Virus record (IMG/VR): IMGVR_UViG_3300024179_000001
Strand: one strand, 5' to 3'
Source of the DNA: an uncultured virus (IMG/VR IMGVR_UViG_3300024179_000001)
Lineage: Duplodnaviria > Heunggongvirae > Uroviricota > Caudoviricetes
DNA length: 64,000 bases
The notes beneath the pieces were generated by a model, which did no database searches, was not told the origin of the DNA, and saw nothing but the letters and a program-made list of their open reading frames with translations. Both the position numbers and the translations under genes were made by a program. How positions within the stretch are numbered: the stretch's first letter is position 1; the number at the start of each line of letters is the position of its first letter. This document shows, piece after piece, positions 3,282 through 62,218 of this stretch.

Positions 3282-3959
3282 ATGACCGCTTACGACAATA
3301 CACCACAATCAGTAGTCGAAATGCTGATCCCGGGCAGGCCTTCCTACGCTTACGGATCGAAAGCTCCCGGCCCGACGTGCCGGATGATCATCGATCACGA
3401 CTCGGTGACCACGAACGTCGTGACACTGACCGTCACCATTGTCGATGGAAACATTCCTCTCGTTGGTGATCTGATCTACGTTTATGCAACGGCGAACAGC
3501 GCCGGAGCTCTCAACCAAACGACAGGAATCGCGATCTCTGCCGTGAATATCACGGCCGCAACCGGAAAGGGCACCATCAGTTACCCGAAGACCGTCGGCA
3601 ACCAAGGAAACACTGTCGACACCGGATACGCGCTCTCGACGCCACAGGAAATTGCAGAGGCTCTGACCACCAACAAGAGCCGAGCGTTTGCGATCCAGAA
3701 CACTCTTGGGCGTGGCTATGGAGTGAGCTGGGCTTTCACATATCCATCGGCGCCGGCATCCGGATCCATCCAGCTGGAGGGCGCGATAAACGACGTCGAT
3801 AGCGAGTACACAATCATCGGAGCCGCGAACACAACGGTGTCCGGTTATAACGAGGTTTTTGCCACCGTTCCGGAGCTCGTCAACTTCGTGCGCCTGCACG
3901 TCACCGCCGCGAGTGGTGGAACGAACCCGACAGTTATCGGGAAGATCCTACAAGCCTAA
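3282..3959 (+). CDS. putative virion structural protein
   Basis: GGAGG SD; Thr/Ala/Gly-rich beta-strand protein. Confidence 0.55.
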   Translation: MTAYDNTPQSVVEMLIPGRPSYAYGSKAPGPTCRMIIDHDSVTTNVVTLTVTIVDGNIPLVGDLIYVYATANSAGALNQTTGIAISAVNITAATGKGTISYPKTVGNQGNTVDTGYALSTPQEIAEALTTNKSRAFAIQNTLGRGYGVSWAFTYPSAPASGSIQLEGAINDVDSEYTIIGAANTTVSGYNEVFATVPELVNFVRLHVTAASGGTNPTVIGKILQA

Positions 3960-3972
3960 GAGGCGCTAAAGT

Positions 3973-33282: not shown

Positions 33283-33690
33283 ATGACCTTCCAAGTAGGA
33301 CACCAGCTTAGAAAAGTCCACGGACATACTTCCGGCAGTGGGAAGAACGCGAGAGTAAGCAGGACGTACCAATCTTGGCACTGCATGAAATTGCGTTGCC
33401 TTCGTTCCTACCACAAACACTTCAAGGACTACGGTGGACGCGGAATAAAAATTTGTCGAAGATGGATGAGCTTTGCCAATTTCCTCGCCGACATGGGAGT
33501 GCGCCCAGCAGGAAAAACGCTCGACCGTTGGCCCAACAGAAACGGCAACTACACGCCACGAAATTGCCGATGGGCAACTCCTAAGCAGCAAGCCGAAGGC
33601 CGACGACCATTGCCGCCATTTTCACGCGAGCATCGTCAGCACATAAGCGAAGCAGCAAAACGTCGAGAGCAACGAAGGAAGAAAATATGA
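33283..33690 (+). CDS. HNH homing endonuclease-like protein
   Basis: YQSW..MK.RC..YGGRGIKIC.RW..F..FLADMG..TLDR...NGNY.P.NCRWAT. Confidence 0.85.
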   Translation: MTFQVGHQLRKVHGHTSGSGKNARVSRTYQSWHCMKLRCLRSYHKHFKDYGGRGIKICRRWMSFANFLADMGVRPAGKTLDRWPNRNGNYTPRNCRWATPKQQAEGRRPLPPFSREHRQHISEAAKRREQRRKKI

Positions 33691-34647: not shown

Positions 34648-35112
34648 ATGCCGTGGACCTACAAAATCGAAGCATGCCCTTCGTGCGGGAAGAAACGGAG
34701 AATCCAAACCTGCAGGAGTAGACGACTCTGCAAGGATTGCAGTAATGCGATAAATTCGCGCAGAGGTGCTGCCAGCAACCTGTTCAAGCACGGTGGAACA
34801 GGACGCACTGAGTTTGTTATTTGGTGCTCGATGCGTCAACGCTGTATGAATCCAAAGCATCCGGCCTACGCTGACTACGGTGGACGCGGGATCAGGATTT
34901 GTGAACGGTGGAACAAGTTCAAGAATTTCCTGAAAGACATGGGGCCGCGCCCCAAAGGCAAATCGCTGGACCGTCGAAATAATGACGGCGATTACACTCC
35001 GCGAAATTGCCGGTGGGCCACGCGATTCCAGCAAGCGAGAAATAGAAGGCCACGCCAGAAGTTAACATTGGAACGGTGGCTGGGGATGGTGGCCCATTCC
35101 ATGGACACCTAA
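34648..35112 (+). CDS. HNH homing endonuclease-like protein
   Basis: WCSMRQRC..YGGRGIRICERW..FLKDMG..SLDR.NNDGDYTPRNCRWAT. Confidence 0.85.
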   Translation: MPWTYKIEACPSCGKKRRIQTCRSRRLCKDCSNAINSRRGAASNLFKHGGTGRTEFVIWCSMRQRCMNPKHPAYADYGGRGIRICERWNKFKNFLKDMGPRPKGKSLDRRNNDGDYTPRNCRWATRFQQARNRRPRQKLTLERWLGMVAHSMDT

Positions 35113-38603: not shown

Positions 38604-40025
38604 ATGCTTGACGATTTGATCGCAGGAGCAGGTGCAGGTGCAGCCGTAGCAGATGCAGCTGGAGCAGGTGATGGGGCCGGAGCCGGAGATGGTACAGGCG
38701 CTGGTGGTGGAGCTGGAGAAGGCGCAGGTGCTGGTGAAGGCGCTGCTGAAGGTGCTGGAGAAGGAACTGGCGAAGGCGAAGGTGGAGAAGGTGCCGGAGC
38801 TGGAGAAATTGACGATCAAGCCGGCGCCGGAGAAGACGATGCGGAGCTGGGTGGCGAGACCGATGGTCGCAAGATCGATGCCGCGACACGCAAGGCACTC
38901 GCTGCACTCAAGAAGGTAGATCCCGCCGCAGCAAAACAACTATTCGCAGATCACGGGCGCGCGGAGCGAATCCGCGAAGAGCTCGGCGTCAAAAATCTCA
39001 GTGAGGCCGTAACCAAAGTCCGGCAGATGGCTGCGACGTTTGAAGCCGTCGGCGGCGAAGAAGGCCTCGTCGAGATCCAGAACGAAGTCGAGGATTACCG
39101 GAAAGAGGTCGCACAGTTCTCGAATGGCGATCCCGCACTGCTCACGCAACTCCGCGAAGCGAATCCCGAACAGTTCGCCAACATGGTGACGCAAGGCCTC
39201 GAGCAGATCGCGCAGCACATGACTGCGGACCAGTTCGACAACACGATCCTGCCGACGATGGTGGCGCGTTTGGACAAGGCCGGATTCTACGGATCGGTCA
39301 CGGAACTCCTTTCGCTCATCAAGGAAGGGAAAGGTCAGGAAGCTTTCGATCTCACCACGAAGATCCACAACTGGCTGAACAACGCCAAGGGAATGGTGAA
39401 GAAGCAGCTCGACCTGAAGTCGCAGAAAAATCCGGAACGCGAAGCACTCGAGAAGGATCGCGCCGCACTCAATCAGGAAAAGCAGGAAGCGTTTGAAGGA
39501 CGCGTCTCGAGTGACGTGAACCGCAGCAACAATACGGCAACGGCAAAGATCGTCGAGCCGTTCTTCAAGGACCTAAAACTCAGCCCGGAAGGCCGCCGCG
39601 AATTCGTCAACGCTCTCAATTCCCGGATCTTCAAAATAATGGCGAAGGATGTGCAGTTCCAGCGCGCCGCAAAATCACTTCTCGCCAAGGGCGACCAGGC
39701 GAGATCTGCACGATTTGTCAGCGCGAAGTTCGCCGAGCTTTTGCCGGATCAGTTCCGCGCACTCCGCAACGCGATGTATCCGAACTACTCGCGAGGTGGA
39801 ACGGCGGCAAGCGCTGCAGCGGGAAAGAAAGCTGCGGCTGCTGGCGCGAACGGAAAAGAAAAGGGAGCCGCAGGGGCTGGATCCGGAGTGAACTACACCG
39901 GAGGGAAGCCGAACCGCGACGACGTGGACTGGAAGCGGACGAGCGAGACGTTGTGGATCAGTGGCCGCGCGTTTCTGAACGGGAAGCCGGACATGGTTAA
40001 ATTCAACTGGAACGACGTCAAGTAA
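38604..40025 (+). CDS. capsid scaffolding protein (putative)
   Basis: G/A/E low-complexity N-terminus, helical core, position before the capsid gene. Confidence 0.65.
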   Translation: MLDDLIAGAGAGAAVADAAGAGDGAGAGDGTGAGGGAGEGAGAGEGAAEGAGEGTGEGEGGEGAGAGEIDDQAGAGEDDAELGGETDGRKIDAATRKALAALKKVDPAAAKQLFADHGRAERIREELGVKNLSEAVTKVRQMAATFEAVGGEEGLVEIQNEVEDYRKEVAQFSNGDPALLTQLREANPEQFANMVTQGLEQIAQHMTADQFDNTILPTMVARLDKAGFYGSVTELLSLIKEGKGQEAFDLTTKIHNWLNNAKGMVKKQLDLKSQKNPEREALEKDRAALNQEKQEAFEGRVSSDVNRSNNTATAKIVEPFFKDLKLSPEGRREFVNALNSRIFKIMAKDVQFQRAAKSLLAKGDQARSARFVSAKFAELLPDQFRALRNAMYPNYSRGGTAASAAAGKKAAAAGANGKEKGAAGAGSGVNYTGGKPNRDDVDWKRTSETLWISGRAFLNGKPDMVKFNWNDVK

Positions 40026-40042
40026 TGGAGTAGGATTCCGTC

Positions 40043-40549
40043 GTGTTCAGATGCGAACATTGGTTCCGGAAGATTTGGGATAAGCTGGAAGAGATCTGGG
40101 AAGTGCTTGTCCAGATCTGGAGAAAACTCGAACAGGTCTGGCAAGAGATCCTGTGCATACATCGGGATATCAAGAGACTTTTGCAGTGGATTGCCCTGAA
40201 AGAGATCGACTTCGTTCAATTTGGAGGCAGTATGAATTTTTCAATCGTTCGTGGAGCAGCAGGAACCTTCACCGCAGTCCTGAATCCAGTTAATGGCGCT
40301 CAGGCTGCGGGTACAGTTCCGCAGTGGACGGCAAGCGACAGTAGCGTAGTTCTCAATCCGAGCGCTGACGGGCTTTCGTGTGACGCCACTGCTCCGGCTG
40401 GCAGCACGTTTACGACATTCGATTTGAACCTCAAGGCAACTTCCTCGGATCCGGCTGTCGGTGTCGTGAGCGTGACTCACACGATTGCGGTAACCGAGCC
40501 TGTGGCACCTCCGCTGCAGTCTATCGATTTCGCGCAGACTGGCGGCTAA
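40043..40549 (+). CDS. Trp-heptad coiled coil + Ig-like domain, with internal in-frame start at 40232
   Basis: IWDKLEE/IWEVLVQ/IWRKLEQ/VWQEILC; GGAGG-N4-ATG at 40232; PQWTASDSSV Ig-like segment. Confidence 0.65.
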   Translation: MFRCEHWFRKIWDKLEEIWEVLVQIWRKLEQVWQEILCIHRDIKRLLQWIALKEIDFVQFGGSMNFSIVRGAAGTFTAVLNPVNGAQAAGTVPQWTASDSSVVLNPSADGLSCDATAPAGSTFTTFDLNLKATSSDPAVGVVSVTHTIAVTEPVAPPLQSIDFAQTGG

Positions 40550-40572: not shown

Positions 40573-40618
40573 CGGGATTCCCCGGGTGCTCCCTCAGGGC
40601 GCCCGGGGATCTCGTTTT
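40573..40618 (+). terminator. intrinsic terminator
   Basis: CGGGATTCCCCGGGTGCTC / GGGCGCCCGGGGATCTCG hairpin followed by TTTT. Confidence 0.6.
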
Positions 40619-40634
40619 GGTATATACTCTTCTC

Positions 40635-40886
40635 ATGTTTCGTGGCAAGAAGTGGATCAAGAAAGAACGTCGCACTCCAGAAGAAGAACATCGGATGCGA
40701 TCTCAGGCCGTCAAGAAAAGCTGGAAGACACGCCGCTCCAAACGCATACTCGCTGCCTCTTCTGTTGGCTCGATCAAGGCTGGTAAAGCGAAAAGGAAGA
40801 CCAGACTCCTGTTGCAGCACCATCTGGCCGAAGACGCTGGTGAGGCCATTTTCATGGAACTTCTCGATGCATTTTGTAAAACGTGA
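40635..40886 (+). CDS. small basic hypothetical protein
   Basis: K/R-rich 83 aa; no SD; follows a TATATACTCTT motif. Confidence 0.35.
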   Translation: MFRGKKWIKKERRTPEEEHRMRSQAVKKSWKTRRSKRILAASSVGSIKAGKAKRKTRLLLQHHLAEDAGEAIFMELLDAFCKT

Positions 40887-40974: not shown

Positions 40975-41190
40975 CGAAGAAGATGTTGGAGCCATCGGGG
41001 TCTTCCCGAAAATAAGTGCCGTACTTCCGAGGCAAGGTCAGGGGCGGGACCAATATCGGTTGAATCTCCGCAACTTCTGCATTGTTCCAAGCACATCGGG
41101 TGTAGGGAAAACTCCGCGATTGATTTCGTGTGAGTCGCCAACGTGCACGCGTTCGGGTCGCCGACCACCGTTGAGCTAATGCAGAGGTCC
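40975..41190 (+). ncRNA. candidate structured 5' leader RNA of the capsid gene
   Basis: Two multibranch domains closed by GATGTTGG/CCAATATC and ACTTCTGCATT/AATGCAGAGGT. Confidence 0.45.
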
Positions 41191-41194
41191 AACC

Positions 41195-42535
41195 ATGGCA
41201 GCGAATCCTTTGGCAGAAGCGGCTGTTGAAGCCGTAGAGCTCGAGAATTTCGCGAAGGGCATTCCGGATCTTGTCTACAAGGGCCACACGGTCTACAACC
41301 TTTTCAAAAAGGGAAGTAAGACCTATCCGACGGCAGTGACCACGCAGGCTGGTGGCACCGCTCGTCCGGCTTTCCGTATTCCTGTACGCATTCAGTCAGG
41401 CGCAGCTATCTTCCAGGCAACTGGAAACGGCGACGCCCTGCCGCGTGGAACCGGATCGCAGTGGGTCGGTGGAGACATTTCTCCGATTGGTCTCTTCGCC
41501 GGATGCGAGATCACGTATCTCGCCCGAATCGCAACACAAGGCCCGAAGCGCGGCTTGATCAGCTTGCGCGCGGAAGAGTTGAAGAATTCTTTCAACTCCT
41601 TCATGCAGGGCGTGGACGCGCAGTTCCTGAGCGATGGCTCGGGCGCAATCGTCCAGATCCCTTCCACCGCGACGGTCAATAACAACACTCTGGGCGGCTC
41701 CAACCCGTCCTCGATCGTCGGTCTCGGTGGTCAGGCGAACCAATTCCAAGAACAGCAGGTCATCCAGATCTTCCCCACTGAAGGCGGCGTGGCTCGCACC
41801 ACTCCGGCGACGGCGACGGTTTCCTACGTCGATGGCGCAAACGACACCGTGTATTTTTCGACGGCTCTGCCGACGAACACAGCGGTGGGCGACTTCGTGA
41901 TGATTCAGGGATCGACTGGTGCGCTGAACTCCGGCCTCGCCGGACTGTATGCGTATCAGGTCGCCTCGAACACGGGAACGATTCTGAATCTTGCGCGTTC
42001 AACCTATCCCGGCCAACTGTCCACGCCGAACATTGCGAAGGGCAACGCCGCGATCAACATGACCGACGCCTACAAGGCCGAGATTCTGATCGGCCGTGGC
42101 CTCGGTGCGGACAACGAAGCTGTTGCGGACTTCGAGTGGATCTGTGGACCGGATCAGGAACTGGCCGTGACGCAGCTGTACACGAACGTCCTCACGCAGA
42201 ATTACGTGCCGCCCGGGGAGAAGGCTCTCGACATGGTCAAGAAGCACATGTCGCCGACTTACGGTGGCCGTCCGCTGAACGTGAGCTACACCGCAAAGCA
42301 GGGCCGTCTCGATGCAGTGTGCCCGGAGACATGGGGCATTGTGGAAACTGTAGAGCCGTCGCTCTACGATTTCGGAGATGGCGTCACCACGATGCCGATC
42401 CCCGATTTCGTTGGTCAGGGCAGCTATTTGACGTCCTCGATCTTCTTCTACAACTGCTTCCTCAACCTCTTCAACTCGAACATGAAGGCTGGCGTTTTTA
42501 TTTCCGGCGCCGCCGTTCCGAGCGTGACGAGCTAA
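41195..42535 (+). CDS. major capsid protein (putative)
   Basis: 446 aa after the scaffold; DGSG motif; followed by a GroES-like gene. Confidence 0.8.
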   Translation: MAANPLAEAAVEAVELENFAKGIPDLVYKGHTVYNLFKKGSKTYPTAVTTQAGGTARPAFRIPVRIQSGAAIFQATGNGDALPRGTGSQWVGGDISPIGLFAGCEITYLARIATQGPKRGLISLRAEELKNSFNSFMQGVDAQFLSDGSGAIVQIPSTATVNNNTLGGSNPSSIVGLGGQANQFQEQQVIQIFPTEGGVARTTPATATVSYVDGANDTVYFSTALPTNTAVGDFVMIQGSTGALNSGLAGLYAYQVASNTGTILNLARSTYPGQLSTPNIAKGNAAINMTDAYKAEILIGRGLGADNEAVADFEWICGPDQELAVTQLYTNVLTQNYVPPGEKALDMVKKHMSPTYGGRPLNVSYTAKQGRLDAVCPETWGIVETVEPSLYDFGDGVTTMPIPDFVGQGSYLTSSIFFYNCFLNLFNSNMKAGVFISGAAVPSVTS

Positions 42536-42602: not shown

Positions 42603-43010
42603 ATGAACGAAAATCAGACTGCAGTTGCAGGACCGATTGATGTGCTGGACCGCCGTAGATTTGAAGACAACGGCGAACCGAAGAGCACTACGGATGTGAG
42701 CGAGAGGAAGTTCAAACTCGTTCCGCGACACAAGTGGGTGCTCATCCGGCAAGTTCAGAAAGAGGAAGTGCGGACGGAAGCAGGCGTTGTGATTCCGGCA
42801 GCAGATTTCTTCCTCATGCAGGGCGAAGACAAGTCACAGCGCGGAGTGGTCGTCGCGGCTGGGCCAGAGTCCGATCTCAAAGAGGGAGACCTCGTGATCT
42901 TCACAGCGTTCCCGATGGAGATCGAAGGCCTCAAGGATCTGACAGGCGACGAACGCATCAAGCTGGTTCGGGACGAGGAAGTGTACTCTCGGGTCGTGGA
43001 ATGCCAGTAA
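42603..43010 (+). CDS. groES: GroES-like co-chaperonin
   Basis: LVPRHKWVLIR...EVRTEAGVVIP...GVVVAAGP..LKEGDLVIF...LVRDEEV. Confidence 0.8.
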   Translation: MNENQTAVAGPIDVLDRRRFEDNGEPKSTTDVSERKFKLVPRHKWVLIRQVQKEEVRTEAGVVIPAADFFLMQGEDKSQRGVVVAAGPESDLKEGDLVIFTAFPMEIEGLKDLTGDERIKLVRDEEVYSRVVECQ

Positions 43011-46662: not shown

Positions 46663-47040
46663 ATGGCCGTCGCAACACTTACAGTTAAGGCTGGATTCGT
46701 ACAGACCAACGACCAGCGTACGCAAAGCTTCTGGGGCACGTTTCAGGTCAGCGCGCCGACGGACATTTATCCGGCCGGTGGGTTCTCTCTGGATCCTGTG
46801 CTTCTGGCAGCTCTCCAGCCGAACACTAATACTGGTTTAATCGGATTTCAGGCGAACGGTTCCGGTGCTGGTTATATCTATCAGCGCATTCCGTCCACCG
46901 GAAAACTGATGGTCTTGCAGGTTCCTTTCAACGGATCGCTCACCACGGCGGCGCCGCTGATTCAGTATCCGTCCTCGGCGGTGTCTGGCATCTGGGCTGA
47001 CGTGATCAGCTTTGAAGCCATCTATCTCCGCAACGCGTAA
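46663..47040 (+). CDS. small virion structural protein (putative)
   Basis: AAGGAG SD; YPAGG...GYIYQ...GKL. Confidence 0.55.
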   Translation: MAVATLTVKAGFVQTNDQRTQSFWGTFQVSAPTDIYPAGGFSLDPVLLAALQPNTNTGLIGFQANGSGAGYIYQRIPSTGKLMVLQVPFNGSLTTAAPLIQYPSSAVSGIWADVISFEAIYLRNA

Positions 47041-47492
47041 GCCTTATTTTCGGCTTGTTGCTTCCATGTGGCCCAACGGCAATTACTCGGCTCGTAGTTG
47101 CCGTTGGGGTCCGGGAATCTATCCAAGGTGAGACGCGGAGATTTTTTGTGACCCATATCAGCGAGAAAATTCGCAAAGGACTTTTTCCATCTGGAGCACA
47201 CAGTTACACCTCTACCCCCGTACCTATGGAAGCTGTGATAGTTGGGATTGAGACAACGCTGAAGCATGTTCCAGTAAGAAAAATATTCCGGCTTTCCCCA
47301 GTGCCCGTGTTTAGAAAGCGCGCATCCGCAACTCGTTGTTTGTTTCCCAACGAGATTTTTCCCGAGAGCGCGCTTTGTCTTTCCGCAATCGCAGAGGCAC
47401 AACCAGAGAGATCCACTTTTTCTATTTGGGATCCGTTTGATTACCACAAGTCTTCCAAAGCGGAGTCCTTGAAGTGTGAGCGCTTTTCTCAT
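47022..47492 (-). CDS. HNH homing endonuclease-like protein, inverted in the late operon
   Basis: GLRFGRLVV..WLCLCDCG..SCGC..YGGRGVTVCSRW..LDR...NGNYEPSNCRWAT. Confidence 0.88.
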   Translation of the reverse strand: MRKALTLQGLRFGRLVVIKRIPNRKSGSLWLCLCDCGKTKRALGKNLVGKQTTSCGCALSKHGHWGKPEYFSYWNMLQRCLNPNYHSFHRYGGRGVTVCSRWKKSFANFLADMGHKKSPRLTLDRFPDPNGNYEPSNCRWATWKQQAENKAYALRR

Positions 47493-47520
47493 TTCGTGCA
47501 TTTTATAAGGGAGTAGTAAA

Positions 47521-50500
47521 ATTAACAACGCTGATCAGCCTTTCATCTCTGCACCGATGGAGTTGATGGGTGGCCTCTACACCGAGGCCACGCCTGAATC
47601 GCTCCCGCTCGGCGCGAGCCCCCGCGTAATCAACTGCGATTTCATTCTTGGTTCGGTCTTTCAGCGCCCGGGAAAACAAAGCCAGTTCTACTTCGGAAGT
47701 ATCTTCATCGAAAATGTCACGAAGTCGGCATCGAGTGTCGCTGGATCGCAGGCGCCGAATGAAGCCGCCTGGTCGAACCCAACCAACGCCACGAAAAATA
47801 TTCCCGGGACGTACGCTTCCGTCACACTGAATTTCGGTGGTGGAACTGGTCCGATTGGTCCTGTCGATAAAGTGGTGACCGCTGGATCTAACATTGCTCA
47901 GGCAGGATTTTCCGTTGGTCCCATCACGCCGAGTCTCGCCGGAGAGTGGGCTTTCCTCGCTCTCCATTCGTCTGGAACTGTTTACGCCCCGCCTTTTGCC
48001 GTATTCGATTCCGTGAGCGTCCAAGCCAGCGCACTGTTCACTGGCCTGAATCCACTTACTGCCACTGGAAATTTCGGTGGACCGAATCAGACATGGGCTG
48101 CTGTTCTCGCTTCGTTTTTCACAAACGGATCCACGCCAGTAGTCTTTAACACCAATCACGGAAACAACTCGGCGTCTTTCCCAGTGTCGTCGATGGTGGT
48201 CAATCTTCCGCACTCCACGGTTCAGGGGCATACGATTCTCGTGACCTGTTACGACCTCGGTGCCGTCAACCTAAACAACGTCACTGCCGTAGACAACCTC
48301 GGGAACAACTACACGCTGATCGGGAAGTCGCAGAACGGCATTGGCGGCCGCGACATGTTCCTGCTTGGCCTTGCGAACATCCCTGCGGGAATCACTCAAC
48401 TCACGATCTCAAAGTCTGGTGGTTTTGCCAGTGCCCAGTGCGAAGTGCAGGAAATCGCTAACTTCTCTTCTCCACCACCGACCCCGGGAGTGAGCCAGAT
48501 CCTGCAGTCGCTGAATTTCGCATTCAACATTCCATCGACACAATTCGTGCTCGGCATGGAAGTCGAAGTCAGCGGGAATCAATCGGACCTGACGGCCAAC
48601 TCGATCCTGACGGCGACAGTCGTCAGCGGTGGCGTTACATCGGCGCCTGTCACTGGCCAGCTTCCTTCTGTCGATGGGACTATCGCCCTCGGCCAGCCAA
48701 CTTCCAACTTCGGATTTGCACTGACTCCTGCGTTCATGAACAGCCCGAACCTCACCGTGAATCTGGTGGCGAGCGCATCGGCGGCGAACGCTGTTTTCAA
48801 TATCTATGCCGTGAAACTGAAAGTTTTCGTGACACCAAATCCGCCGCCGAATTTCAACTACATCAAAACCTTTGCAGAGACGGGCGGCGAAGTACTGACG
48901 CTGGTGCTCGGAAGCGACGGAGTCTTCTACCAGGAAGACGCGATCAATGCTCCGGGCGTGCTCACGGGTGTCGCCACGAATATTCTTCCGGATAGTTTCG
49001 CGCAGTCCGCGACAGTCGATGATCGTGAGTTCATCGCGGTATCGAATCTGCAGAACGGCACCGATGTACCGCGCACCTACACGCCGCCGAATTTCGACCG
49101 CCTGAGCCAAGTGGGCCCGGGAGCTCCTCCGGCGGCTTCCTCTTCCTCGGCGTCGAATACCATCGTGTCGATCACGCAGCCGACGGTGAAAAGCGACGTC
49201 GCTAATCCGGGACATCTTTCCGGGATCCTGTGGTCCGCTGGCCCCGGATCCACCGCTGTTGGAAACGTGCTCACCGTTTATTACGTCGGAACAAATTTCC
49301 AGCCAGTTGCTGATCCGGATCTCGTGATCGGCGCCGGCGTGCAACTTGCCGGAATCGATCCCTCACAATTCGCTGGCCAGACGGTGAACGGCGATTACAT
49401 CATCACGAGCGTTGGACAGGGCGTTCCTCCGGGCGCGGCACAATCGCGCTGGTATTTCACGGTGACGATGCCGTCGTCGCAGTCGATCAATCAGGCGAAT
49501 CACATCGAAGCGCACGCACCGACAGGAACCTATCAGGTGACAACGGCAACCCTGACGGCTGCCGCGCAGGTTCCGAATCTCGAGGTTGGCGGCACGCTGC
49601 AGATTTCCGGGACCGGAGGAGCTCCGACTGCCGGATACGATGGCAGCTGGACCGTCAACGCCACGCCGAACGCTTCGCAGCTGCAGATCACGAGCACGGT
49701 GCTCAATGGAAACGTGGCGACGTACGGATTCAACCTGATCACGGGAACGAATCCTGTCGTCGGCCAGATCATCACTGTCAGCGGAACACTGAACGGAAAC
49801 GGGATCTTCAACGTCCAGAATCAGGCGATCTCCGCGACGTCGCCGGGATCGTTCTCGATCACCTTGTTCGGTCCCAATGTTTCGTCAGCTGCTGAAACCG
49901 GATCAGGCATCATTTTCGGAACGATCTTCCAATTTGATCCTCTGGTGATCGTCGGCAACAGGCTCGGTGGGAATCTCGTCACCACCGGGATCATCAGCGC
50001 TGGCGTGCGGAAGGTCTGCTACTCGTTCCTGACGCGAAATGGCTTCATGACCCAGCCTTCGCCGATTACGACTTTCGATGTGACATCCGGCGCCGCGAAC
50101 CTGCAGATCTCGAATCTCCTGACCGGACCCTCGAACGTGATCGCCCGGGTGATCCACCTGACGGCCGCGAACGGCAGCAACTTCTACAATATTCCCGAGC
50201 CCGTTCCGATAAATGACAACGGAACGATTGTCACCAGCACATCGACGTGGGTGAACGACAACACGACCCAGAGCGTCACACTGAGTTTTTCAGATGGTGT
50301 GCTCCTCGCCGCCGATCAGATCGATATTCAGGGAAACAACCTCTTCGAGAATATCGAGCTCGGAAGCTGTGTTGCGCTGATCCCTTACAACCAGCGGATC
50401 TTCGCCGTCGGCGAACAGAACAAGATCACAAATCTGCTGAACTTTTCCTTTGACGGCGGCATTACGGCCTCCGGAGCTCCAGCCGGATGGACCGTGGATC

Positions 50501-60146: not shown

Positions 60147-60344
60147 ATGGCCATTCCCGTCGAGATCACGGTAGAGAAGGCGCTTGACCAGATCGCAGCA
60201 AGGAAACGCGTCCCCATCGGGATCCTCTCGTACGACATGGAGAAAGAGACGCTGGTGATCGAGCTCGTGGGCCAGATCCACCCGGATGAAGTGAACGCCC
60301 TCCTCATAAAGCTCGGAATCGAAGCGAACTTCACAGAAAAATGA
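60147..60344 (+). CDS. hypothetical protein
   Basis: Stop overlaps the GT start. Confidence 0.5.
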   Translation: MAIPVEITVEKALDQIAARKRVPIGILSYDMEKETLVIELVGQIHPDEVNALLIKLGIEANFTEK

Positions 60345-62218
60345 AAATTGCAATTGTCACAAACCTGAACGGAATAGGTTTGCAGCGCGACTACGAGCTC
60401 CTGCGCGATTTCCTCCAGCGTCTTGGGCACATTGTCGACGGGATCCAGTGGGACGGTCCAATCGATGAAGAAATTCAAGCATCGATACCGTACGATCTCG
60501 CGATCTTCCTTGAGGTGATTCCCCGGAACTTCCTCGAGCTCGCTCCGGTGAAGTGGGCATTCCTGAATCCGGAGTGGTGCAAGCCGGATGTGATCAAGAT
60601 GGCCGAGCGGCACATCGACAGGATCTTCGCAAAGACGCACGAAGGCCAGAGGATCCTCGAGGGGACATTTCCGGGCAAAGTTTTCTATACGGGCTTCCTG
60701 ACGCGCGATCAATTCACGCCGGCGATAAAACGCCAGAAATGGTTCCTGCACATCGGGGGAAATTCTTCGATGCGCGGGACACAGGCTGTGGTCGACGCAT
60801 GGAAATGGAAAAAGGACGGCTTTGAGCTTCAGTGCAAGCTCTTCGTCGTCTCTTCGGTCTTGCAGGATAAGCCGAATCTTCTAAACGTCACCTACATCGA
60901 ACGCGCGACGGAAGAAGAGCTCTACAGTCTGCAGAACCAGTGCATGTTCCATATCTATCCGAGCGGCACCGAGGGCTTCGGTCATGCGCTCCACGAATCG
61001 CTGAGTGTCGGCGCTGTCCTACTCGCTACGGATGCGCCGCCGATGAATGAAATTAGCAACGCGTACCGGATGAAGGCGAAGAAGGTCGGCAAGTACAATC
61101 TTTCGGATGTCTATGAAGTGGACGCTATCGAGATCTTTGAATCGGTGCAAGCGGTCCTGACCGTCTATGATGGACCGCCCCAGTCGTGGCATTTCCCGCG
61201 AAAAGAATTTGAATCGCTGAACGCGGAATTCGCGACGCGATTCGAGAAGGAACTGCTTGCCATGGAGCCGGGAAAGAAAGCTCCAGTGGTCCGCACCGCG
61301 AAAACGAAACCGAGCATCGCGTTTATCGGAAATTTCAAGGCCAGCGAGAGCACAGAGAACATGATCCGCTGGGCGCTCGAGGAACGTCTCGGCTACGACG
61401 TCGAGCAGTTGCAGGAAAACGAAGTGAATCTGGCAGCGATCCGGAGCGCGTGTCTTTGGAACGACGCTCTCTTGTGGGTGAAGACTCCAAACTGGCTGCA
61501 GGTGACGAACCGTGAGATGGAGGAACTGCTCGAGGAGATCAAAATTCCGTCGTTCTCGATTCACCTCGACAAGTTCTGGGATATCACGGAGAGAGAGCCG
61601 CAGATCGGCGTGCATCCTTTCTGGAAGACCGATTTCGTTTTTACGGCCGACGGATCCGCGCAGGACAGATTCAGGGAACGCGGAGTGAATCACATCTGGA
61701 TGAAGCCAGCGGTGAGTGAAGTCTACTGCCACCCAGGCTGGACGTGGGATATGTACCGCTGCGACGTCGGCTTCGTTGGAGCAAAGGACTACCACGCGCA
61801 ATATCCCTTCAGGAAGCAGCTCGTCGAGTTCCTCGAGAAGACCTACAAGGAACGCTTCCAGCACATCACAGGCCTGCGCGGCCACGGCCTGAACGATTTC
61901 TATGCGAGCTGCAAGGTTGTCGTCGGTGACTGCATCTTCGCCGGGACGGAGAATTATTGGAGTGATCGTCTCCCTGAAACTGTCGGCCGCTACGGCTATC
62001 TCCTCCACCCCGATGTCGAGGGAATCGACATCCCTGTGAATGTATATGGAGCACAGGAGCTTGATCATCTCCAGAACCGCATCGAGAGTTGCTTGGTTAC
62101 AAATGAGCGGATCAGGAGAGACTGGATTGAAAATTGCGCGGAACATGTACGGAAGTACGATACATGGACAGCGAGAATGCGCTGGATCCTCGAGCAGGTA
62201 ATGGATGGAGGTTCCTGA
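60341..62218 (+). CDS. bifunctional GT-B glycosyltransferase (GT4-like + CgeB/Glyco_trans_1_2-like)
   Basis: PSGTEGFGHALHES..TDAPPMNE; DVGFVG..YWSDRLPETVG..TW..R. Confidence 0.85.
   Translation: MKIAIVTNLNGIGLQRDYELLRDFLQRLGHIVDGIQWDGPIDEEIQASIPYDLAIFLEVIPRNFLELAPVKWAFLNPEWCKPDVIKMAERHIDRIFAKTHEGQRILEGTFPGKVFYTGFLTRDQFTPAIKRQKWFLHIGGNSSMRGTQAVVDAWKWKKDGFELQCKLFVVSSVLQDKPNLLNVTYIERATEEELYSLQNQCMFHIYPSGTEGFGHALHESLSVGAVLLATDAPPMNEISNAYRMKAKKVGKYNLSDVYEVDAIEIFESVQAVLTVYDGPPQSWHFPRKEFESLNAEFATRFEKELLAMEPGKKAPVVRTAKTKPSIAFIGNFKASESTENMIRWALEERLGYDVEQLQENEVNLAAIRSACLWNDALLWVKTPNWLQVTNREMEELLEEIKIPSFSIHLDKFWDITEREPQIGVHPFWKTDFVFTADGSAQDRFRERGVNHIWMKPAVSEVYCHPGWTWDMYRCDVGFVGAKDYHAQYPFRKQLVEFLEKTYKERFQHITGLRGHGLNDFYASCKVVVGDCIFAGTENYWSDRLPETVGRYGYLLHPDVEGIDIPVNVYGAQELDHLQNRIESCLVTNERIRRDWIENCAEHVRKYDTWTARMRWILEQVMDGGS

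Follow-up and report, generated by a model that had tools for sequence, protein, structure and literature searches.

A nested two-start phage gene with a duplicated beta-strand, predicted to encode a donor-strand Ig polymer and its anchored cap

Why should one phage gene carry the same short beta-strand twice, once just ahead of an internal start codon and once just ahead of its stop codon? The gene lies in a stretch of 64,000 bases, here called the window, from a complete virus record of 66,446 bases. The long ORF, at 40043–40549 on the plus strand, encodes 168 aa from a GTG start that follows a weak ribosome-binding site (GGAG/AGGA; site and start at 40027–40045) with an anti-SD pairing energy of −5.9 kcal/mol. 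An in-frame ATG at 40232 opens a frame of 105 aa. The GGAGG at 40223–40227 sits 4 nt upstream of this codon (site and start at 40223–40234) and pairs at −9.3 kcal/mol; sequence, conservation and anti-SD pairing mark the ATG as the putative short-form start. Reading along the plus strand, the long product begins with an amphipathic heptad helix (residues 4–49; 40052–40189), which includes W12, W19, W26 and W33 and is predicted to be an oligomerising or membrane-facing anchor. The N-terminal strand copy, LKEIDFVQFGG (residues 52–62; 40196–40228), is modelled as docking in cis, where it supplies the long form with its strand A. It is followed by a Big_2-like Ig domain modelled as strands A′–G, which without strand A presents an acceptor groove (40232–40495), by a 6 aa proline-rich linker, EPVAPP (40496–40513), and by the C-terminal copy, LQSIDFAQTGG and a stop codon (residues 158–168; 40514–40549), the predicted donor of strand A to the next subunit. 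A terminator-like GC-rich hairpin at 40579–40609 on the same strand is not above chance (one found against a shuffle mean of 1.8).

An earlier note on this DNA had described the nested ORF with its internal GGAGG and ATG, the tryptophan heptad and the two strand copies, and the coordinates, the translation and the motifs in the long product are as it gave them. A motif PSSM built from close relatives, with the two sites themselves included, scored the copies at 30.2 and 26.3, while the next best of the 93,608 six-frame 8-mers in the 64-kb window scored 9.0. The gene is single-copy, being its own sole match in the complete genome (66,446 bases, with terminal repeats). A sequence check revealed no signal-like N-terminus on the short form.

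The close family comprises 31 proteins, 22 of them long. A methionine occupies the domain boundary in 22/22 long forms, and both strand copies are present in 21/22, the exception being P0022, the end of which is aberrant. Thus the internal SD and ATG and the paired copies are kept among close relatives, and none of the sequence-level observations that the earlier note had named as contrary to its reading turned up. The nine close proteins that are short do not testify to short-only genes, as the upstream frame is open at L006 and L033. At all 13 distinct close loci at least 35 open codons precede the internal ATG in its frame, and the internal SD pairs with the 16S tail more strongly than does the SD of the upstream start selected by the analyst. 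Ten of these 13 upstream starts are GTG codons. The purine tract at the internal SD is retained while the residues it encodes vary (GG, GE, GR and GD), and a test of the GGA codon was weak (11/13 against a baseline of 0.45). As 77 of 149 control ORFs also have at least 35 open codons ahead of their first SD-ATG, internal SD-ATGs are common and the case for this one rests on the fixed position of the methionine. A profile search (E ≤ 0.001) reached 298 clusters at 50% identity, and its 150 listed matches included 148 new representatives. Of these, 125 were anchorable and 95 of the anchorable ones long; at the protein level a methionine falls in the boundary window in 81 of the 95, compared with 10 of 274 control windows. 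The possibility that only the long form is made, with an N-terminal copy that acts as a temporary cap until displaced by a neighbour's C-terminal copy and an incidental internal methionine, draws on the frequency of internal SD-ATGs by chance. It is hard to square with a methionine fixed in position, an internal SD that is stronger at 13/13 loci and the 17 of 74 more distant loci that have no long frame (see below), and we consider it very improbable.

The layout recurs in about a hundred distant, unannotated relatives, and no curated family in Pfam, PHROGs or NCBIfam covers the gene. With the window protein as query, the Big_2 family (PF02368) did not reach the Pfam cut-off and no family was returned; weak Big_2 matches were found in 2 of the 31 close members (best E 0.0013), and Big_2 is absent among the families listed for 147 members (E ≤ 0.01). 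In a protein atlas, 29 of 30 matches were unnamed clusters, among them at least three that are viral and of 105–109 aa, and one was a cluster with Big_2 in 17% of its members. A search of GTDB genomes did not turn up the close family. At least six loci of the more distant branch described below were found in bacterial genome assemblies. Searches of cultured phages with tblastn returned weak Bacillus phage matches and one distant member; three further tblastn queries gave no match, and two viral scans with distant representatives returned one unrelated-looking locus and nothing else. Among cultured phages, a distant member was found in Ralstonia phage RP13 alone, where the gene is ORF216 (L121 4902–5348). 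The frame there is open for 33 codons ahead of the annotated start and includes a strand-like stretch, and the gene lies among small genes and tRNAs. A literature search, mainly of openly readable main texts, found no description of such a system.

Structure prediction with AF2 and an alignment of 31 sequences gave the helix and an Ig domain with neither strand copy docked. Structural matches to this strand-less model start at residue 63, equivalent to residue 385 of pb6 and 170 of gpV, which is seven to ten residues inside known Big_2 domains; the top VIA match was 8jou_D (Z 8.3, rmsd 2.8, 82 aligned). With 147 sequences (pLDDT 94.7, pTM 0.76), the helix spans residues 4–49, strand B is longer and the N-terminal copy becomes a strand at residues 54–60 (pLDDT about 95), while the C-terminal copy lies outside every sheet in the monomer. 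Residues 52–153 of this deeper model align with T5 pb6 375–470 (Z 10.0, rmsd 3.2, 94 aligned) and with lambda gpV 161–246 (Z 9.4, rmsd 2.2, 85 aligned), and the model covers whole domains of T5 pb6, lambda gpV, the phi29 capsid protein and SbsC (Z 9–10), with other Ig folds scoring within 1 Z of the Big_2 matches. No known filament was among the top Foldseek and VIA matches listed, the wide VIA search having been run on the strand-less model. The N-terminal copy is therefore predicted to dock in cis on a Big_2-like Ig domain and to serve as its first strand, which agrees with the earlier suggestion that the long form is self-complemented. The short form is predicted to be the same fold without strand A, carrying strand A at its tail, and the suggestion of an Ig fold short of one strand is thus backed by both modelling and comparison. 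Big_2 accessory domains of the lambda gpV C-terminal domain, T5 pb6 and the phi29 capsid are complete and fused to virion proteins. The domain described here shares their predicted fold over residues 52–153, but is stand-alone, falls below the Pfam model and is circularly permuted in the short form: with the order A′–G, linker, A, the short form would correspond to a single repeat of a tandem Big_2 rod after circular permutation.

If the two copies occupy the same groove, they should be constrained together. An alignment (A4) combined 20 close proteins with 127 of the 148 representatives, with 21 long, truncated or odd ones omitted, and both motifs could be aligned in 101 long forms, namely the query and 100 representatives of different 50%-identity clusters. 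The similarity between a protein's own N- and C-terminal copies was 22.7, against 8.5 for mispaired copies and a maximum of 11.9 in 5000 shuffles. In 69 of the 101 (with 6 ties), a copy is more similar to its partner in the same protein than to the corresponding copy of the nearest relative. Identity between the copies at positions −7, −4 and −2 was 0.79, 0.87 and 0.81 (expected 0.27, 0.28 and 0.58), and at −9, −3 and −1 only 0.14, 0.16 and 0.18, so that the positions at which the copies change in step are mostly those that face inward. Unusual variants are also paired, as in PTALGPLVQ with PTSLGPLTQ and PATGGKIVQ with PATGGTITQ. Correlations between the two copies in their profiles of co-variation with the domain were 0.74, 0.88 and 0.75 at −7, −4 and −2, and 0.09–0.25 at the outward positions −9, −5 and −3. 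A recent DNA duplication was ruled out as an explanation, as outward positions and synonymous sites differ between the copies. As inward positions match and outward positions differ, the aligned sequences indicate that the two copies are constrained by one groove.

Positions of the C-terminal copy also co-vary with the domain, −7 with A88 (z 8.2), −4 with G140 and P93 and −2 with H146, and these partners are the same as those of the N-terminal copy. This signal could be partly indirect, arising via the N-terminal copy or from shared ancestry. It fits equally well with docking in cis or in trans, and so is consistent with the short form being an ordinary monomeric Ig accessory domain with its C-terminal strand folded back on itself. 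In an Ig topology strand G ends at one pole of the domain, and the partners of −7 and −4 lie at the other, some 35 Å from it. The linker available to cross this gap is 6 aa here and 2–4 aa in 19 of 146 aligned members (overall range 2–15 aa), which makes an in-register fold-back implausible. The fold-back appeared in neither AF2 model, and a strand can be encoded by an ORF of its own that has no domain to fold back on, as described next. The monomeric arrangement accordingly seems to us to have very little going for it, and we favour donation of the C-terminal strand to another subunit.

A more distant branch, reached via L023, gave 118 viral matches, from which 80 loci were kept and 74 remained after duplicates and one truncated locus were removed. 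Its link to the nearer family is an HMM match of modest score (best E 5e-7). An in-frame extension is open in 57 of the 74 loci, compared with 22 and 17 for the other frames and a mean of 15.9 (maximum 26) in shuffles, and an SD precedes the domain ATG in 49. The likeness of the fused segment to the C-terminal copy is weak (n = 58; 13.4, where shuffles gave 11.6 and a control segment 12.5), and clear duplication therefore belongs to the nearer superfamily. The 17 remaining loci have no long frame, and at several of them a small adjacent ORF ends in a strand. At L095 and L102 this ORF ends in AEITVGKPQDK, compared with VELTAGTPEDK in the domain, and at L107 in TIELGKPEPK, compared with GIELGTGEPK; at all three, the helix-and-strand ORF stops 2 nt ahead of the domain ATG. 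L072 and L075 have a separate ORF made up of a transmembrane helix, a strand and a stop codon, and at L044 a strand-bearing ORF with a tryptophan-rich helix lies downstream. With L102 dropped, a strand-bearing neighbour ranked first among the ORF ends of its locus in 8 of 16 cases, where 2.6 would be expected for the top two ranks; the case of L066 (score 16) is probably due to chance, and L044 ranked third. No partner ORF appeared in the top two ranks in 8 of the 16 short-only loci. A strand followed by a stop codon in a separate ORF can act only in trans. The proposal in the earlier note that the C-terminal copy is a donor strand thus gains from three sides, namely the co-variation, a model in which that copy is free and the naturally split loci.

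At five loci of the distant branch (L070 4327–4641, L076 4339–4656, L077 4327–4641, L091 4338–4652 and L115 2928–3272) a second Ig-like ORF of 104–114 aa with a similar end strand lies downstream. It is possibly a second subunit type, and the one in L115 has a weak match to phrog_215.

Taken together, we think it probable that short subunits polymerise by strand donation and that the long form caps and anchors the polymer. One gene would give rise to two proteins, an abundant 105 aa subunit and a rarer 168 aa form made from the weaker upstream start. The C-terminal strand of each short subunit would fill the groove that the missing strand A leaves in the next copy, producing a head-to-tail chain in which a tandem Big_2 rod is rebuilt without covalent links. 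The long form, with its own groove filled, would close off the chain at one end and hold it in place through the helix, donating a strand but unable to accept one, like FimI and PapH. If it is donor-only, the ratio of the two starts would set the number of subunits per anchor. Assembly would take place late in infection with no chaperone or usher, and it would be cytoplasmic, given that a signal peptide is absent from the short form. We infer use of both starts, docking in trans, an open polymer and its location from these lines of evidence. A tip or second acceptor subunit was not found in the window. The earlier note had cast the long form as an anchored initiator; the helical anchor stands as a prediction, but rather than an initiator the long form reads better as a cap and anchor for one end, as FimI and PapH are.

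Donation in trans might instead close on itself, so that short subunits form swapped dimers or small rings and the long form binds just one or a few of them. All of the sequence evidence for trans donation fits this arrangement, the proline-rich linker ranges over 2–15 aa, and Ig dimers are known in phages, in the fibres of GP4 and A1002 (PMC13730344). Short proline-rich linkers would favour an extended path, and a closed ring with no free groove would leave a donor-only anchor peptide or a self-capped long form unbound. We therefore rate closed assemblies as unlikely relative to an open chain, though less so than either of the two readings dismissed above.

Polymers of donor-strand Ig domains are of a kind already known. 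Type V pili, TasA fibres and archaeal cannulae are strand-exchange polymers, some of them chaperone-free, and in type V pili the donor strand is C-terminal. Type V pilins have two domains and are made as lipoprotein precursors that are matured by a protease, whereas here there is a single 88-residue Ig domain and the short form has no signal peptide. The Pam pili of CPR bacteria are also strand-exchange polymers (PMC13278184). All four are appendages that cells secrete, and they differ from the present case in their folds and in having anchors encoded by genes of their own. In chaperone-usher pilins (FimA/FimI, PapA/PapH) a neighbour's strand completes an incomplete Ig fold (PMC10673952, PMC9046445), and FimI and PapH terminate and anchor the pilus, the length of which is set by the subunit ratio (PMC10673952). 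The short form resembles these pilins in that it is predicted to be an Ig fold lacking one strand, but the first rather than the last. The chaperone-usher donor is an N-terminal extension inserted between strands A and F, whereas here it would be C-terminal and replace strand A. The long form is a candidate counterpart of FimI and PapH, its groove being predicted to be filled by itself, and the distant branch includes apparent donor-only ORFs; unlike in those pili, the cap would be closed by its own strand, come from the same gene via a second start and be encoded by a phage. Chaperone or usher families were not found among 16 neighbouring proteins searched against Pfam and PHROGs or 19 more searched against PHROGs.

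Phage fibres offer two further comparisons. The neck fibre of cyanophage A-1(L), gp82-gp81-gp80, builds itself head-to-tail out of an anchor subunit and a large number of repeated ones (PMC10966104). It is encoded by three genes, consists of trimeric beads joined by beta-hairpins, has a defined length and a tip subunit and, unlike the gene described here, is not known to involve a nested start. A paralogous tip or anchor of the A-1(L) type was not detected here, the gene having one match in the complete genome. In the chain fibres of podophages GP4 and A1002, small beta-sandwich subunits are chained by beta-sheet augmentation (PMC13730344), and dimers are arrayed on a separately encoded rope that sets their number, in contrast to a donor strand carried by each subunit. 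The entry 8jou_D, the top VIA match to the strand-less model, is associated with these fibres. No rope protein with motif repeats was found in the 64-kb window, where both motif copies are in this gene.

Where the polymer would be anchored depends on the helix. In the window protein it is amphipathic (hydrophobic moment 0.55–0.65) and not transmembrane (KD19 maximum 0.65), with L/I at heptad positions a and d and W/H at e. General coiled-coil rules and PDB sequence searches, in which the best were weak coiled-coil matches to designed bundles of 4–7 helices, suggest a bundle of four or more strands. A CxH motif at residues 38–40 (window 40154–40162) is present in 20 of the 22 close long forms, and the N-termini of several relatives, including P0014, P0019 and P0133, are rich in His and Cys; these residues may form a metal site in the helix bundle. 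Transmembrane-like anchors are found in 23 of the 101 long forms and in 9 of the 57 in the distant branch. In the 23, there are 7 K/R before the segment and 71 after it, so the Ig domain is predicted to be cytoplasmic, the same compartment as the signal-less short form. On a tree of low resolution the two anchor types are intermixed, with 20 changes as compared with 20.9 after shuffling.

The gene follows a terminase gene, a portal-sized gene assigned by position and, at 38604–40025 on the plus strand, a 473 aa neighbour that is scaffold-like by position and has no family match. Downstream, at 41195–42535 on the plus strand, is a major-capsid-like gene (SU10_MCP-like by language-model features only). 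The order scaffold-like gene, this gene, MCP-like gene is found in 11/11 close loci that reach both sides. Among the 74 distant loci, in which 273 neighbours were scanned, 17 have a head or packaging neighbour (a major head protein in four), nine an endolysin and two baseplate genes; DNA-metabolism genes were also seen, and most neighbours had no match. A spanin or holin role, considered for the loci near endolysins, was ruled out as the Ig domain is predicted to be cytoplasmic and the window gene lies in the head module.

These contexts bear on whether the same polymer is instead a virion appendage, its helix bundle docked on the capsid or neck, a reading that differs in location only. The constant head-gene flanks of the close loci, the head or packaging neighbours in the distant ones, best fold matches that are virion-surface Big_2 domains and the precedent set by phage A-1(L), whose neck fibre assembles itself head-to-tail (PMC10966104), all point this way. 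So does L105, where a separate strand-bearing ORF of 97 aa (3674–3967) lies directly after the major head gene and ahead of the subunit gene. It has no family match, consists of a small N-terminal domain, an Ala/Glu-rich helix and a donor strand at its end, and is a candidate capsid-binding anchor. Against capsid docking are the transmembrane-like anchors, anchor sequences that are highly variable, the endolysin, baseplate and DNA-metabolism neighbours of distant loci, and L020 and L021, which have no head genes nearby. We therefore place the inner face of the host membrane first, at about even likelihood, the virion head or neck second, as a serious but distinctly less likely site, and a free bundle last. 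For the capsid-borne filament that the earlier note had suggested, the gene order in the close loci holds up, but the varied distant contexts and the membrane-like anchors count against it.

Several other features of the region were recorded. A small basic ORF with no family match (window 40617–40886) lies between the gene and the capsid leader, and the spot after the gene is variable among relatives, being occupied by a tRNA-like element or other small ORFs. The element, about 175 nt and directly after the gene in L005 (6438–6615), L008 (6534–6712) and L033 (377–555), has acceptor and D stems and a GGTTCAA loop; the D loop contains an inserted hairpin of some 60 nt, the variable region is extended by further hairpins, and across three sequences 9 of 55 pairs show compensatory changes. 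It was undetected by ARAGORN and Rfam and was not seen in the window. The capsid gene is preceded by a conserved structured leader (window 41070–41192), closed by CUCUGCAUU and AAUGCAGAG beside the ribosome-binding site, in which 6 of 35 pairs are compensatory (six sequences). It has no Rfam match and possibly controls translation of the capsid protein. A GroES-like co-chaperonin gene (window 42603–43010), kept in close loci, directly follows the capsid gene. Elsewhere in the window (60341–62215, 405–1106, 33283–33690, 34648–35112 and 47022–47528), a glycosyltransferase gene and a methyltransferase gene lie near fibre-like genes, and several ORFs that are HNH-like by eye are in the structural region.

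If the favoured reading is right, a filament, its anchor and its length control would be encoded in about 500 bases, in a large unannotated phage family. Donor-strand polymerisation, so far a feature of secreted pili, would also operate among cytoplasmic phage proteins, nested in-frame starts would gain a new use in separating subunit from cap, and a covalent tandem Ig repeat would have become a non-covalent polymer by circular permutation. The gene would also provide a simple self-assembling fibre and a natural strand-tag and acceptor system with co-varying pairs. More tentatively, and with slightly less than even confidence, we suggest that tailed phages widely encode a chaperone-free, one-gene pilus that grows in the infected cell from a membrane-bound cap, with its length set by the ratio of the two ribosome-binding sites. 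Such filaments would form a class of cytoplasmic structure not yet recognised in phages and might, for example, tether assembly sites or progeny to the membrane, or bundle progeny at lysis.
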